A stretch of DNA of 64,000 bases from an uncultured Candidatus Saccharibacteria bacterium (GTDB lineage Bacteria > Patescibacteriota > Saccharimonadia > CAILAD01 > JADZBC01): contig CAYPSN010000001.1 in NCBI GenBank assembly GCA_964413715.1, positions 10,613 through 74,612 on the forward strand, written 5' to 3'. The notes beneath the pieces were generated by a model. It did not search any database. It was not told where the DNA came from and saw nothing but the letters and a program-made list of their open reading frames with translations. The translations under genes were made by a program, and so were the position numbers. Positions 47,456 to 51,596 of this stretch are shown here, piece by piece (the stretch's first letter is position 1; each line of letters begins with the position of its first letter).

Positions 47456-47707
47456 ATGCTAATTGATGTGCGTACAGCAGAAGAATATGCCGAAGGACAC
47501 CTAGAAGGCGCAATAAACGTGGAGCTGGCTGAGGATATGGCTATTAAACTGCCGACCGAGGCCAAGGGGCAAACACTGGAGCTGTACTGTCGCAGCGGCG
47601 GCAGGGCAGGAACTGCCGCACAGTTACTTACGCAGGCTGGCTATCAAGTCAAGAACATAGGTGGGATTGATGATTTAGTGGCTCAGGGATATAGTAAGGC
47701 TGAGTAA
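47456..47707 (+). CDS. single-domain rhodanese-like sulfurtransferase
   Basis: 83 aa. Active-site loop YCRSGGR. Confidence 0.8.
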   Translation: MLIDVRTAEEYAEGHLEGAINVELAEDMAIKLPTEAKGQTLELYCRSGGRAGTAAQLLTQAGYQVKNIGGIDDLVAQGYSKAE

Positions 47708-47721
47708 TTGGGAGAATACCT

Positions 47722-47901
47722 ATGGACGAGAAGAAAAAGAAAGATTTAGAAGAACAAAAGTGTGGTGGCTTGTTTGTGCCTGCCGGGGTCTTGCTTGGCA
47801 CCGGTCTGGGCTTTGCATATGGCAATATACCCGCTGGCGCACTGATTGGTCTTGGCGTAGGTTTTACTGTATTCGCGCTTATTACAGTTTTTAAGAAGTA
47901 G
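47722..47901 (+). CDS. small hydrophobic protein (59 aa), not in the ORF track
   Basis: MDEKKKKDLEEQKCGG followed by two Gly-rich TM-like segments; ends TAG at 47899-47901. Confidence 0.35.
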   Translation: MDEKKKKDLEEQKCGGLFVPAGVLLGTGLGFAYGNIPAGALIGLGVGFTVFALITVFKK

Positions 47902-47911
47902 CAGGTCGATA

Positions 47912-47966
47912 TAAACGAAAAGGACCCCCGAACGAATCGGGGGTCCTTTCGTTCAGGGGTCGGGCG
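47912..47966. repeat. island repeat copy R1 (nested palindrome; terminator-like for the minus-strand gene at 47972)
   Basis: AACGAAAAGGACCCCCGAACGAATCGGGGGTCCTTTCGTTCAGGGGTCGGG: 13-bp stem AAAGGACCCCCGA/TCGGGGGTCCTTT with loop ACGAA. Confidence 0.8.
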
Positions 47967-47971
47967 GGCAG

Positions 47972-48415
47972 CTAGGGCCTGCGCTCCGGCTTCAACTCCA
48001 GATCGAGCTTGGCAAGCGAAGCTTCGACCAGCTCGAGACATGCAGCGCCGAAGCCCGTAATGGCGCGCAGCTCACTGGCGTCACGCTGTACGAGTTCGCC
48101 AACGGTGTTGATTCCTGCTCGTCGGAGGCATTCGGCCGTTCGAGTCTTCACTCCCTGCGTGAAGGGGACCCCCTCGAGCTTGATGTTCAGAAGGTCCTCG
48201 ATGTTCATCTTGAGAGTCTCGTGGCCTCGGCCAATGAACTCGGTGGTGATGTGCCTCTCTTCCACTCGGATTACGGCTCTCACTACGAGACCGTGGTATC
48301 GACCTTCCAGTGCCTCGATGTCATTCAAGGCGCTCAGGATTGCTAGGTGTTCTCCCGTAAGGCTGATTTCGACATCTGCCTTTTGGGGTACGACTTCGGA
48401 TCCGAAATCGGGCAT
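47972..48415 (-). CDS. island gene A: stand-alone RpoA C-terminal-fragment-like protein (end of alphaNTD + linker + alphaCTD double HhH)
   Basis: 147 aa. TAECLRRAGINTVGELVQRDASELRAITGFG..LELVEASLAKLDLELK aligns with actinobacterial RpoA alphaCTD (VRSANCLKREGVHTVGELV..DLLDIRNFGQKS..LGLSLK). N-terminal 60 aa aligns with the last alphaNTD strand and linker. About 57% GC. Confidence 0.6.
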   Translation of the reverse strand: MPDFGSEVVPQKADVEISLTGEHLAILSALNDIEALEGRYHGLVVRAVIRVEERHITTEFIGRGHETLKMNIEDLLNIKLEGVPFTQGVKTRTAECLRRAGINTVGELVQRDASELRAITGFGAACLELVEASLAKLDLELKPERRP

Positions 48416-48476
48416 TGCAGTGGCCTTTTGTTCTCTGCGGGGCTACCGCAGCACATCCACGGTGGATGATTAGCAA

Positions 48477-48505
48477 ATAATATCACAAATATAGTAAAAA
48501 GTCAA
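48477..48505 (-). promoter_or_regulatory. promoter of island gene A: TTGACT-17-TATTAT (minus strand)
   Basis: The AT-rich 90-bp spacer contains near-consensus hexamers. The 5'UTR carries hairpin CUGCGGUAGCCCCGCAG and an AAAAGG SD. Confidence 0.5.
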
Positions 48506-48512
48506 TATCATT

Positions 48513-48563
48513 ATAACGAAAGGACCCCTGAACGAATCGGGGGCCTTTTCGTTCAGGGGTCGG
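48513..48563. repeat. island repeat copy R2
   Basis: ATAACGAAAGGACCCCTGAACGAATCGGGGGCCTTTTCGTTCAGGGGTCGG; 12-bp perfect arms CCCCTGAACGAA/TTCGTTCAGGGG plus an alternative overlapping stem. Confidence 0.8.
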
Positions 48564-48580
48564 TTTGATGGTGGGCCAGG

Positions 48581-48958
48581 TCAGCGGCTGAGGATGACCG
48601 TGCAGGATGGGTTGTCCTGGATCAGCCAGTCACCGTTGTACTGGACCAGCTTGCCATCACAGACCTTGCTGGTCTTGGAGCTGTCTGTCAAGGTGTAGCG
48701 CACGGACCTATTCCAGACCGAGAGCTCGACCACGTGGATCTTGTCGTAGTGCGACTCGACCTCCGTCGTGACACGGGCATCTTCCTTGGCCCGGCTCTCA
48801 TCCACGAGGTACATGCCATTGGCGAAGACCACGAAGATGACGGCCAGTACCCCGAAGGCGATGGCTGGCTTCCAGTGTTTCTTGGAGATCAGCAGGACAC
48901 CGGTGGCGACTGCGAGCACTCCCGCCATCATCAGTGCGACGATTACTTCTGCGCTCAT
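48581..48958 (-). CDS. island gene B: hypothetical two-TM membrane protein with about 70-aa extracytoplasmic Cys-containing C-domain
   Basis: 125 aa. GC3 about 80%. Perfect SD AAGGAGG 6 nt before the ATG. Confidence 0.55.
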   Translation of the reverse strand: MSAEVIVALMMAGVLAVATGVLLISKKHWKPAIAFGVLAVIFVVFANGMYLVDESRAKEDARVTTEVESHYDKIHVVELSVWNRSVRYTLTDSSKTSKVCDGKLVQYNGDWLIQDNPSCTVILSR

Positions 48959-49051: not shown

Positions 49052-49103
49052 ATAACGAAAAGACCCCCGAACGAATCGGGGGCCTCTTCGTTCGGGGGTC
49101 GGG
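49052..49103. repeat. island repeat copy R3
   Basis: AATAACGAAAAGACCCCCGAACGAATCGGGGGCCTCTTCGTTCGGGGGTCGGG. Confidence 0.8.
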
Positions 49104-49113
49104 TTGTGCCGGC

Positions 49114-49533
49114 TCAGCCGGAGGTGATGACCAGCTTGATGTCGGCGAAGGCGTAGGTCAGCGCCTGCTCGAACTCCAGGTCCTCGCCGATGCCGTGGCC
49201 GAAGTGCTCTCGAACGTCGACGGCTCGGATCACCTCGGTCTCCATGAGCACGCCCAGGGCGTGGTCGATGACCTGTGCCTTGAGCTTCTCCTGCGGATCG
49301 CTCCGCTTGGTGTCGATCAGGACCACACGGTTGTGCAGCTGGCTGAGCTTCTCGTGCTTCTCGTGGAGTCGGCCCTCGACGTTGATCACTGCATGTTCTG
49401 CAAGGATCTGGAAGCGCCCAGAGGTCACGATGGTCTGGATCTGGCCATCGTCACCCGTGAAGCGCAGGCTTCCGTCGGGCATGGTGGCCAAGAGGCCTAC
49501 CTGCAGGGCAGGCGTGGTTGCAGTTGCAGCCAT
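49114..49533 (-). CDS. island gene C: hypothetical soluble protein
   Basis: 139 aa. GC3 about 85%. SD GAAGGAG. No confident family; a weak epsilon-subunit-like GRFQILAEHAVI motif was considered and not trusted. Confidence 0.5.
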   Translation of the reverse strand: MAATATTPALQVGLLATMPDGSLRFTGDDGQIQTIVTSGRFQILAEHAVINVEGRLHEKHEKLSQLHNRVVLIDTKRSDPQEKLKAQVIDHALGVLMETEVIRAVDVREHFGHGIGEDLEFEQALTYAFADIKLVITSG

Positions 49534-49568: not shown

Positions 49569-49597
49569 ATTATGCATGATTAATTCAAAAATGTCAA
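49569..49597 (-). promoter_or_regulatory. promoter of island gene C: TTGACA-17-CATAAT (minus strand)
   Basis: Consensus -35 and 17-nt spacer in an AT-rich spacer. Confidence 0.5.
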
Positions 49598-49620: not shown

Positions 49621-49672
49621 ATAACGAAAAGGCCCCCGAACGAATCGGGGGCCTTTCCGTTCAGGGGTCGTG
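49621..49672. repeat. island repeat copy R4
   Basis: ATAACGAAAAGGCCCCCGAACGAATCGGGGGCCTTTCCGTTCAGGGGTCG. Confidence 0.8.
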
Positions 49673-49687
49673 TTGTGAGGCCTGCCT

Positions 49688-50119
49688 CTAGCCGATCGGC
49701 TTGAGGCTCAGCCCGTGCTCGGCCAGCTTCTCCTTGACCAGGTCGAGGCTCTTCTGGCCGAAGTGCGTGATCGCGAGGAGGTCGTCCTCGGTCTTCTCGA
49801 CGAGCTGGCTGACGGTCTCGATCTGCGCACGACGTAGGTTGTTGCGGGTGCGGTCGACCTGGCTGTTGCCGGGGTCGGGGTGGCCGATGAGCTCCTCGAT
49901 GGTCATCTCCGGGGCCGGCCTCTGCCCGATGAACTCGATGCGCGACTTGTCGCCGATGAACTCGATGCTCGAGACCTGGGTCTCGATGCGCGCGCTGAGC
50001 TTGACGTCGGGGTAGTCCTCCGGGATGCGCAGGATGGCGGCCTTGGCCGCCAGGATCTGGTCCGTGGGGCCCGTCAAGACGAGCTCGGCGGAGATGCTGT
50101 TGGGTGCGGGGTCGGTCAT
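49688..50119 (-). CDS. island gene D: stand-alone actinobacterial-type RpoA C-terminal fragment (last alphaNTD strand + linker + alphaCTD)
   Basis: 143 aa. QVDRTRNNLRRAQIETVSQLVEKTEDDLLAITHFGQKSLDLVKEKLAEHGLSLK closely resembles actinobacterial RpoA CTD (..[47 protein letters not shown]), including the actinobacterial FGQKS signature. N-terminal TGPTDQILAAKAAIL resembles the last alphaNTD element. GC3 about 95%. Confidence 0.7.
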   Translation of the reverse strand: MTDPAPNSISAELVLTGPTDQILAAKAAILRIPEDYPDVKLSARIETQVSSIEFIGDKSRIEFIGQRPAPEMTIEELIGHPDPGNSQVDRTRNNLRRAQIETVSQLVEKTEDDLLAITHFGQKSLDLVKEKLAEHGLSLKPIG

Positions 50120-50182
50120 ATTTCCTCTTTCGTTGGGCGACCGGTTGCGTCCTTGTGGACGATTTTACAAGACGATTTTGCA

Positions 50183-50211
50183 ATATTAGCATAATTTTTA
50201 TTAATTGTCAA
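50183..50211 (-). promoter_or_regulatory. promoter of island gene D: TTGACA-17-TAATAT (minus strand), back-to-back with the hisS promoter
   Basis: Consensus -35 and a near-consensus -10 with 17-nt spacer. Confidence 0.5.
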
Positions 50212-50276
50212 TATTAGCTGACATTTTGTCGGCCGGCTACTTTCCGCTATACTAAACCTAAAGTAAAGGAGCCAGT

Positions 50277-51596
50277 ATGGCACGGGTAACACCACGCATT
50301 CTCAGCGGTTTTGTTGAGCTTCTGCCCGAGGATCAAATAAAGTTTAATAGTATGTTCGACACGATTCGTAGCGTATACGAAAGCTATGGCTATGCGCCGA
50401 TCGAGACTCCTGCAATCGAACTGGGCGAAGTTCTGCTGGCCAAGGCTGGTGGTGAGACCGAAAAACAGATTTACAAAATTGCTCGCGATAAAGACGACAA
50501 AGAGATGGCATTACACTTTGATCTGACTGTGCCACTGGCACGCTACGTGGCTCAACACGAAGGCGAGTTGGTTTTACCGTTTCGGCGCTATCAAATGCAA
50601 AAAGTCTGGCGTGGCGAACGCAGTCAGGCAGGACGATACAAGGAGTTCTACCAATGCGACATCGACGTCGTTGGCAGTAGTAATGTGCTTTATGACGCAG
50701 AAATGCCTGCTGTTATTTCGAGCGTGTTTCGCAAACTCAATGTTGGTGCGTTTACCATTCGCATTAATAACCGCAAGATACTCCAGGGCTACCTAGAAAG
50801 TATTGGTGCGCATCATATTTCGGCAGAAGTGCTGCGCGTCGTCGATAAGCTCGACAAAATCGGTGCCGCTAAAGTAAGTGATGAGCTGGTAGGGCTCGGT
50901 GTAACTAAAGACCAAACCAAGAACCTACTTGAATTTATCGCTACCAAGGGTAGTGTAGATGAACTTTTGGGTGCACTCGAGGCGCAACAAACTCAAAATA
51001 CTCGTTTTCGTGCTGGTTTGGCGGAACTTCGAGGGGTGATTGATGGCATTCGCCAACTCGGCGTGCCGGCAGATGACTACGCGATAGACCTTACGATTGC
51101 GCGCGGGCTAGACTATTACACCGGCACGGTATACGAAACGACACTTGATGATTTTCCTGGTGTTGGCAGTGTGTGCTCAGGCGGTCGCTATGATGATTTG
51201 GCAAGCTACTATACAAAGAGCAAATTACCTGGCGTGGGGATTTCAATTGGACTAACGCGATTGTTTATGCAACTTAAAGAGATTGGCTTGGTTGCCGAAG
51301 GCGCTCGCACGCCGAGCAAAGTTGCGATACTACCACTGAGTGAAGCGGCTGTACCGCGTGTACTCGAAACTGCTGCTGCATTGCGCAGCGCTGGGGTCTC
51401 TGCTTTAGCCCAGCTCGATGTGGGCCAGCCAAGCAAACAACTACGCTATGCGGACCGGCTTGGAGTAGCTTGGGCAATCGTAGTGGGCGAAGATGAGGTC
51501 GCCAATAAAAAACTAATTCTCAAAGACATGGCGACAGGCGCACAAGACACTATGGCAATAACCAAGGTGGTCAAAAAGCTTACGGCTGACAAATAA
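50277..51596 (+). CDS. hisS: histidyl-tRNA synthetase
   Basis: 439 aa. Class II motifs (FRRYQMQKVWRGE, GGRYD), C-terminal anticodon-binding domain. Confidence 0.9.
   Translation: MARVTPRILSGFVELLPEDQIKFNSMFDTIRSVYESYGYAPIETPAIELGEVLLAKAGGETEKQIYKIARDKDDKEMALHFDLTVPLARYVAQHEGELVLPFRRYQMQKVWRGERSQAGRYKEFYQCDIDVVGSSNVLYDAEMPAVISSVFRKLNVGAFTIRINNRKILQGYLESIGAHHISAEVLRVVDKLDKIGAAKVSDELVGLGVTKDQTKNLLEFIATKGSVDELLGALEAQQTQNTRFRAGLAELRGVIDGIRQLGVPADDYAIDLTIARGLDYYTGTVYETTLDDFPGVGSVCSGGRYDDLASYYTKSKLPGVGISIGLTRLFMQLKEIGLVAEGARTPSKVAILPLSEAAVPRVLETAAALRSAGVSALAQLDVGQPSKQLRYADRLGVAWAIVVGEDEVANKKLILKDMATGAQDTMAITKVVKKLTADK

Follow-up and report, generated by a model that had tools for sequence, protein, structure and literature searches.

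The hisS–rhodanese interval

The stretch of DNA that we analysed (the window) is 64 kb long and has a GC content of 48.8%. Four open reading frames (ORFs) on the minus strand, D, C, B and A, occupy the interval between hisS (50277..51596, plus strand) and a rhodanese gene (47456-47707, plus strand). Gene D (49688..50119, minus strand) encodes 143 aa and gene A (47972..48415, minus strand), its paralogue, 147 aa; both ORFs are intact, in agreement with the initial annotation of this region. Between them lie gene C (49114..49533, minus strand), a cassette ORF of 139 aa with no known family, and gene B (48581..48958, minus strand), which encodes 125 aa and, on the basis of two N-terminal hydrophobic stretches, is read as a putative membrane protein with two transmembrane segments. 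hisS forms the conserved left flank of the interval, and the rhodanese gene together with a hydrophobic 59-aa ORF (47722-47901, plus strand) forms its conserved right flank.

The assignment of the organism to Saccharibacteria agrees with the label carried by a relative with the same locus, uncultured Candidatus Saccharibacteria. Saccharibacteria live as obligate epibionts and have tiny genomes. The 64-kb window does not contain the organism's own rpoA. At the 3′ end, a reading frame that stays open for over 1,600 codons (~59177-64000, plus strand), with a strong positive GC skew, runs out of the window, and this probably encodes a giant surface protein.

D and A are stand-alone αCTD proteins

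Profile searches place the C-terminal parts of both D and A in the family of the RNA polymerase α C-terminal domain (αCTD; Pfam RNA_pol_A_CTD, PF03118), as the initial annotation had predicted. Residues 90-134 of D match the profile with 50.9 bits (E 1.3e-13) and residues 91-134 of A with 39.8 bits (E 3.9e-10), both above the gathering cut-off of 23.8 bits. The αCTD extends over residues ~72-140 in D (49700..49906, minus strand) and residues ~70-143 in A (47987-48208, minus strand). AlphaFold models these parts confidently (pLDDT 79-91), with the compact helical double helix-hairpin-helix fold of αCTD. D contains DDLLAITHFGQKSLDLVKEKLAEHGLSLK, which fits the actinobacterial signature that had been quoted for it. 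Both CTDs also have an insertion of 8-15 residues, placed after the IEEL motif and before the first DNA-contact helix.

Neither protein matches PF01000 or PF01193, the αNTD profiles. The RpoA models (TIGR02027 / PRK05182) cover only the C-terminal 50-90 residues of D and A, starting at residue ~56-90, and in the whole-protein comparison with TIGR02027 D reaches 47.0 bits and A 39.6 bits, far below the equivalog cut-off of 227.8. In all lineages with readable context, D and A lie between hisS and the rhodanese gene and not in the rpsM-rpsK-rpsD-rpoA-rplQ operon. The two are thus stand-alone αCTD proteins that, for want of an αNTD, cannot be RNA polymerase subunits, as had been claimed. The reading of D as the remnant of a split rpoA gene fails, since D adjoins hisS outside the alpha operon and does so in at least seven lineages.

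We compared D and A with E. coli α at R265, N268, G296, K298 and S299, which are DNA-contact residues of the “265 determinant”. D keeps all five of the residues checked (R90, N93, G121, K123 and S124), and in sequence alignments so do P0002-P0007. A has changed three of the five (N268 to E95, K298 to A125 and S299 to C126) and keeps only the R and the G; DNA-contact residues are also lost in P0080 and P0081. Since A, P0080 and P0081 lack them, DNA binding cannot be the common function of the D/A family.

The N-terminal module is unrelated to RpoA

The initial annotation had aligned D and A colinearly with the last ~145 residues of RpoA. This holds for the last ~70 residues, but not for the N-terminal half, which had been interpreted as the final αNTD element plus linker and which fails both hhalign and Smith-Waterman comparison with RpoA. 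When the alignment of D-family N-terminal modules (residues 1-71 in D; 49907..50119, minus strand) was compared by hhalign with an alignment of 18 RpoAs, the result was a probability of 0.75% and a match that was not colinear. Comparison of full-length D-family and RpoA profiles aligned 56 CTD columns and nothing else. Smith-Waterman alignment of the N-terminal part with the 100 residues that immediately precede the CTD in five RpoAs scored about as well as shuffled sequences (z –1.8 to +1.1). From the RpoA models and the hhalign and Smith-Waterman results we conclude that only the last ~70 residues are derived from RpoA.

We detected no relationship of the N-terminal module with RpoA or with any family outside the locus. 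A HMMER profile of the module, run against 1.84 billion representatives, recovered the family members P0002, P0050, P0079, P0080 and P0081. Three repeat proteins also matched, a multi-KH protein, an adhesin-like one of 2805 aa and a low-complexity one of 2120 aa, and were rejected as homologues; these matches span just a short strand-Gly-helix motif that occurs in many repeats. AlphaFold predicts the module with low to moderate confidence (pLDDT 40-80).

D and A are full-length paralogues (33% identity, E 6e-15) that differ in GC content, as had been noticed, with 66.2% for D and 57.7% for A. The initial annotation had left the choice between two acquisitions and an old duplication. Because the unique N-terminal module is common to D and A, one origin followed by duplication is likelier than two acquisitions. 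D itself carries a 27-nt in-frame tandem duplication (49926..49972, minus strand; SIEFIGDKS / RIEFIGQRP), corresponding to 9 aa with a repeat spacing of 27 and 95% identity. None of the homologues has this duplication, which sits in a low-confidence loop (pLDDT about 40). It is not an assembly artefact, since the same protein recurs, identical, in independent assemblies.

Promoters and 57-nt hairpins

D and A had been described as having a promoter, a Shine-Dalgarno (SD) sequence and a terminator each, and we find a σ70-like promoter, an SD sequence and a strong 3′ hairpin for both. The promoter of D (50183..50211, minus strand) consists of TTGACA, a 17-nt spacer and TAATAT with an extended –10 TG, and is conserved in relatives. 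The promoter of A (48477..48505, minus strand) has TTGACT, a 17-nt spacer and TATTAT, also with TG, and its junction is identical in the close relative L007. C has its own σ70-like promoter (49569-49597, minus strand), and a search for σ70-type promoters detected none for B. Eight near-consensus σ70 promoters were found against 1.3 expected, and D, C and A have one each. Judged from these signals, D, C and A are apparently expressed as independent transcription units.

Upstream regions of D were compared between the window, L003, L010, L133, L136 and L137. The 5′ UTR of D contains a small hairpin, CGTCC-ACAA-GGACG (50148-50161), which in relatives takes the compensatory variant CGCCC-AGAA-GGGCG. 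In L136 and L137 there is a second 5′ hairpin, CTGCGG...CCGCAG, similar to one found in gene A's 5′ UTR (about 48440-48465). Just upstream of its –35 hexamer, at a distance of a few bases, D has a conserved ACAAAATG tract.

A 57-nt repeat stands 3′ of each of the four cassette ORFs; its copies form hairpins of 17-19 bp with a predicted energy of –20 to –39 kcal/mol. The copy after D (49621..49677, minus strand) is a long hairpin terminator of –39 kcal/mol; the copies after C (49052..49108, minus strand) and B (48513..48569, minus strand) also form hairpins, the latter an imperfect “hybrid”, and the copy after A (47913..47969, minus strand) ends the array. The repeat occurs nowhere else in the 64 kb, where 0.01 copies are expected by chance. 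In the other loci too (10), the element lies 3′ of every cassette at this position, and over 15 copies from 10 loci the hairpin stem is kept through compensatory substitutions and paired indels.

A metagenome scan with the 19-nt hairpin core, CCCCCGATTCGTTCRGGGG, returned, among the matches listed, mostly one recurring unrelated terminator and scattered singletons; none of these listed matches fits the 57-nt repeat outside the 19-nt core, the best reaching 71%. The core, CCCCCGATTCGTTCGGGGG, is also that of the unrelated terminator, in which it has a different surrounding sequence (L011-L130). Among the matches listed, this terminator is found on many contigs of ~60% GC, many of them labelled human gut.

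A hotspot of cassette exchange

The interval between hisS and the rhodanese gene is a hotspot that holds one to four unrelated small ORFs per lineage, arranged as same-strand cassettes. The initial annotation had noted neither this array and hotspot nor the 57-nt hairpin and the mosaic evolution. Its content varies by lineage between D-C-B-A, E-A, D, C-F and C. E (L007 5436-5801) is an unrelated orphan of 121 aa with a GC3 of 49%, beside A, and F (L138 7584-7994) an unrelated orphan of 136 aa, beside C. The D/A family is very small: close homologues form six clusters for D (59-69% identity) and one for A (89%), and there are three more distant members. All D/A family members with readable context sit downstream of hisS in the same hotspot, and where context is readable the family is confined to one Candidatus Saccharibacteria clade. 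Homologues of C (55-69% identity, GC3 86-89%) occur at the hotspot only. C, B, E and F, which fall into no family of Pfam, PHROG or PADLOC, are orphans. The genes flanking the loci are hisS, bipA, relA/spoT, the rhodanese gene and an FtsX/ABC transporter; no recombinase was called within ±6-8 kb in any locus.

A replacement is seen in L007, whose hisS is 93% identical to that of the window at the nucleotide level. Homology between the two ends at position 50240 and restarts at 48561, inside the hairpin after B. In place of D-C-B (1.68 kb), L007 has the single unrelated 121-aa cassette E (L007 5290-5855). The hairpin that precedes A is identical in its 3′ arm between the window and L007, whereas the 5′ arms differ; both hairpins are imperfect hybrids, and the promoter of A is common to the two. 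The shared 3′ arm and different 5′ arms suggest a crossover inside the hairpin. Taken over the loci, the sequences suggest that recombination exchanges both the cassettes present and their alleles, in some cases at least through a crossover within the hairpin.

Composition and evolution of the cassettes

The cassette ORFs stand out by their third-position composition, with a GC3 of 97.2% for D, 84% for C, 83% for B and 67% for A. The only other ORF in the 64 kb with a GC3 above 0.65 is one of 75 aa (59207-59434, GC3 0.71), which is taken to be spurious. In seven lineages with a genomic GC3 near 50%, that of D is 79-97%. The fourfold sites of hisS differ by 0.46-0.69, which is near saturation except for the two or three closest lineage pairs, and the synonymous divergence of D across lineages is 0.14-0.43. 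For the pair of the window and L003 the values are 0.14 for D and 0.64 for hisS. We rejected the low synonymous divergence of D as clean proof of recent transfer: at a GC3 above 80% saturation lies at only ~0.5, and the measure is informative for the closest pairs only.

The relationships among D genes conflict with those of hisS, which implies mosaic histories. L003 and L133 are 92% identical in HisRS and 97% in upstream DNA, and just 56% identical in D. The window and L003 share only 76% identity in HisRS and 65% in upstream DNA, yet they form the closest D pair. Within D, dN/dS is 0.48 for the N-terminal module, 0.88 for the linker and 0.52 for the CTD, and A compared with its 89% identical homologue gives 0.27. 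At least seven D lineages and three A-type lineages have intact ORFs whose start and length are conserved. These patterns indicate that D and A are functional, fast-evolving and recombining genes under some purifying selection.

The same data bear on the possibility that the cassettes are recently imported, functionless DNA, that is, high-GC foreign gene fragments decaying behind resident promoters. The drop in GC3 from 97% to 79% across lineages does look like amelioration, the dN/dS of the linker is near 0.9, and the cassette families are tiny orphan groups. We nevertheless judge this reading to be very improbable, because ORF integrity, start and length are maintained over so many lineages, because dN/dS is ~0.5 in both folded parts of D and lower in A, and because the D-type proteins conserve their DNA-contact residues. 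Promoters, SD sequences and structure-compensated terminators are also conserved, and searches for the N-terminal module, C and B revealed no donor copy elsewhere.

Origin of the CTD

The CTD of D had been called actinobacterial in type, and its closest relatives are indeed true rpoA genes located in alpha operons of genomes with 70-73% GC. The sequences nearest to it, at 63-71% identity, include such genes; both of the rpoA loci inspected are in alpha operons, and their rpoA has a GC3 of 95-97%. Over a core of 52 residues, D-type CTDs are 69-73% identical to these rpoA genes in protein and 72-76% in DNA. For one of the genomes, the full-length RpoA of its cluster scores highest against mycobacterial and Streptomyces RpoA. 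The S4 protein of the other (L131) reaches 231-240 bits against mycobacterial and Cutibacterium S4 and at most 189 bits against all others. On the basis of these RpoA and S4 scores we call the genomes Actinomycetota-like. The identity of the D CTD is ~50% to mycobacterial αCTD and 48% to that of B. subtilis, so the label “actinobacterial” rests on one RpoA subgroup and not on known host genera.

In the alpha operons of L131 and L132 (70-73% GC), many genes, rpoA, secY and adk among them, have been called in pieces, which points to long-read assemblies rich in frameshifts. P0012 (143 aa) and P0020 (251 aa) were rejected as stand-alone CTDs on account of their location in alpha operons with fragmented gene calls; these “short RpoA” proteins are probably frameshift fragments of the assembly.

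GC3 and nearest neighbours, on which the case for a foreign origin is based, point to capture of the CTD from a high-GC Actinomycetota-like rpoA or an rpoA-derived paralogue. There was probably one capture, followed by duplication into the D type and the A type. The D-family CTDs share the derived residues IET, DLV and LAEHG, which differ from every RpoA found. Repeated refreshment of the D CTD from host rpoA was rejected, as these shared residues are absent from all the RpoAs.

An origin of this kind invites the suggestion, already made in the initial annotation, that D mimics the αCTD of host RNA polymerase. D would be delivered into an actinobacterial host, where it would titrate activators or UP elements, and the diversity of its alleles would correspond to different hosts. 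The Actinomycetota type of the CTD, a codon usage like that of high-GC bacteria (GC3 up to 97%), the membership of the organism in an epibiotic phylum and the strong allelic diversity at a fixed locus all agree with such a role. However, neither a signal peptide nor a secretion-associated neighbour is seen in the sequence, the closest RpoA group is not demonstrably that of a known host genus, and identity to the mycobacterial CTD is only ~50%. The derived residues are moreover shared across the family, so individual hosts are not tracked. In our estimation a host-directed D is rather improbable.

A proposed role: free αCTD as a competitor of RNA polymerase

D is predicted to be a cytoplasmic free αCTD with all the checked residues of the 265 determinant. 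As such it would bind A/T-rich DNA resembling UP elements, proteins whose normal docking site is αCTD, or both, and would compete with the α subunit of RNA polymerase and thereby re-tune transcription. The N-terminal module may provide dimerisation, which at this stage is a guess. A, with three of the five DNA-contact residues lost, would probably have a protein-binding role only. We infer competition for DNA or protein from the conservation of R90, N93, G121, K123 and S124 in the D-type proteins, together with established knowledge of αCTD. An expressed free αCTD that acts as a DNA or protein competitor, or regulator, is to us the most economical reading, given the conserved DNA-contact residues and the independent expression signals, and we put it forward tentatively, at somewhat short of an even chance. 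Against it stands the observation that dN/dS values of 0.5-0.9 and a hotspot location fit a role in conflict, with phages or hosts, at least as well as one in housekeeping regulation.

Such a role could be that of a decoy inside the Saccharibacterium, where a free αCTD soaks up or senses factors of phages or mobile elements that target αCTD. A decoy would account for the rapid evolution and recombination of the hotspot, and it is consistent with the hypervariable cassette locus, the mosaic histories of coding sequences and promoters, and the range of dN/dS. Viral contigs encode stand-alone αCTD proteins of their own, and A has a weak, local match to an αCTD-like segment of BREX PglW (E 2.4e-4, 17 bits, in PADLOC; also seen with NCBIfam). 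That match, below significance, is the only one that PADLOC gave for A, and D, B, C, E and F gave none; searches of the phage collection, PHROGs and PADLOC found no family-level match for any of D, A, B, C, E and F. The absence of a significant PADLOC or PHROG family membership argues against a conflict decoy, as does the lack of a linked gene for an effector or nuclease; the cassettes nearby are orphans with independent promoters. To our knowledge there is also no Saccharibacteria phage factor that targets αCTD, and on balance we consider the decoy unlikely.

A further reading joins mobility and function. The units of promoter, ORF and hairpin at the hisS–rhodanese locus would constitute a new exchange system of Saccharibacteria, with attC-like recombination in the hairpin and without a linked integrase, and the D family, its commonest cargo, would be a host-tuned or delivered αCTD mimic whose GC3 is maintained. 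We regard this combination as quite improbable. Were it true, D would be a determinant of host range, and its extreme GC3 would be a maintained property of the cargo and not a relic of transfer.

Under the preferred reading of D as a free competitor, the locus would offer a natural example of transcription control through competition by a subunit domain. If D acts on hosts or phages, it is a candidate specificity factor for the epibiotic interaction. In either case a module of RNA polymerase has been cut loose, joined to a new domain and retained at a single hotspot in at least seven diverged lineages with a fast turnover of alleles. Since Saccharibacteria genomes are tiny, accessory genes that are retained in them likely matter for lifestyle. 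Two oddities of the locus lend themselves to tests, the architecture of its cassettes and an unexplained GC3 of 79-97% against a genomic GC of ~50%.

Comparison with known systems

The cassette arrays of integrons are a structural parallel. They likewise consist of tandem, same-strand, unrelated small ORFs, each of which here ends in an imperfect inverted repeat of ~57 nt, and their content likewise varies between close relatives; at our locus, one breakpoint falls inside the repeat and the hairpins are hybrids. Integron cassettes are promoterless, whereas D, C and A have promoters of their own, B being the one for which none was detected. intI, attI and Pc are not seen in the neighbourhood of the loci examined. 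Compared with attC, the hairpins are near-perfect terminators, in which an R″/R′ core and extrahelical bases are not apparent by eye. Short-homology recombination after natural transformation would explain the cassette data equally well. Natural transformation has served as a genetic tool in Saccharibacteria.

With RpoA of high-GC Actinomycetota (PF03118), D and A have the αCTD in common, but they lack the αNTD and lie outside the alpha operon. Relative to the αCTD of RpoA they add the 8-15 residue insertion and an unrelated N-terminal module, and A is without three DNA-contact residues. αCTDs have been re-used elsewhere, in P0010 and P0049 from high-GC bacteria, in P0040, a fusion of σ70 region 4 with αCTD, and in NCBIfam NF005841. 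Phage contigs (IMG/VR) encode two further αCTD ORFs, L144:4734-5195 (153 aa) and L146:4851-5162 (103 aa, with an N-terminal CxxC...CC), both of which pass the Pfam threshold. Other stand-alone αCTD proteins are, like D and A, small, with a short non-RpoA N-terminal part and one αCTD. Their N-terminal parts are, however, unrelated to the D/A module, and the Saccharibacteria hotspot yielded none of them. Counted by hand, the CTD of P0010 shares about 69-75% identity with D-type CTDs, and it has the ERARN start in common with them. D scores 20.9 bits against NF005841 (PRK07758), for which the cut-off is 115, and thus falls outside that family. Our literature searches retrieved no described function for the other stand-alone αCTD proteins and no description of the D/A family or of αCTD paralogues in Saccharibacteria. 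Small αCTD proteins with other N-termini therefore exist, and what is new is the D/A family, its locus and its composition.
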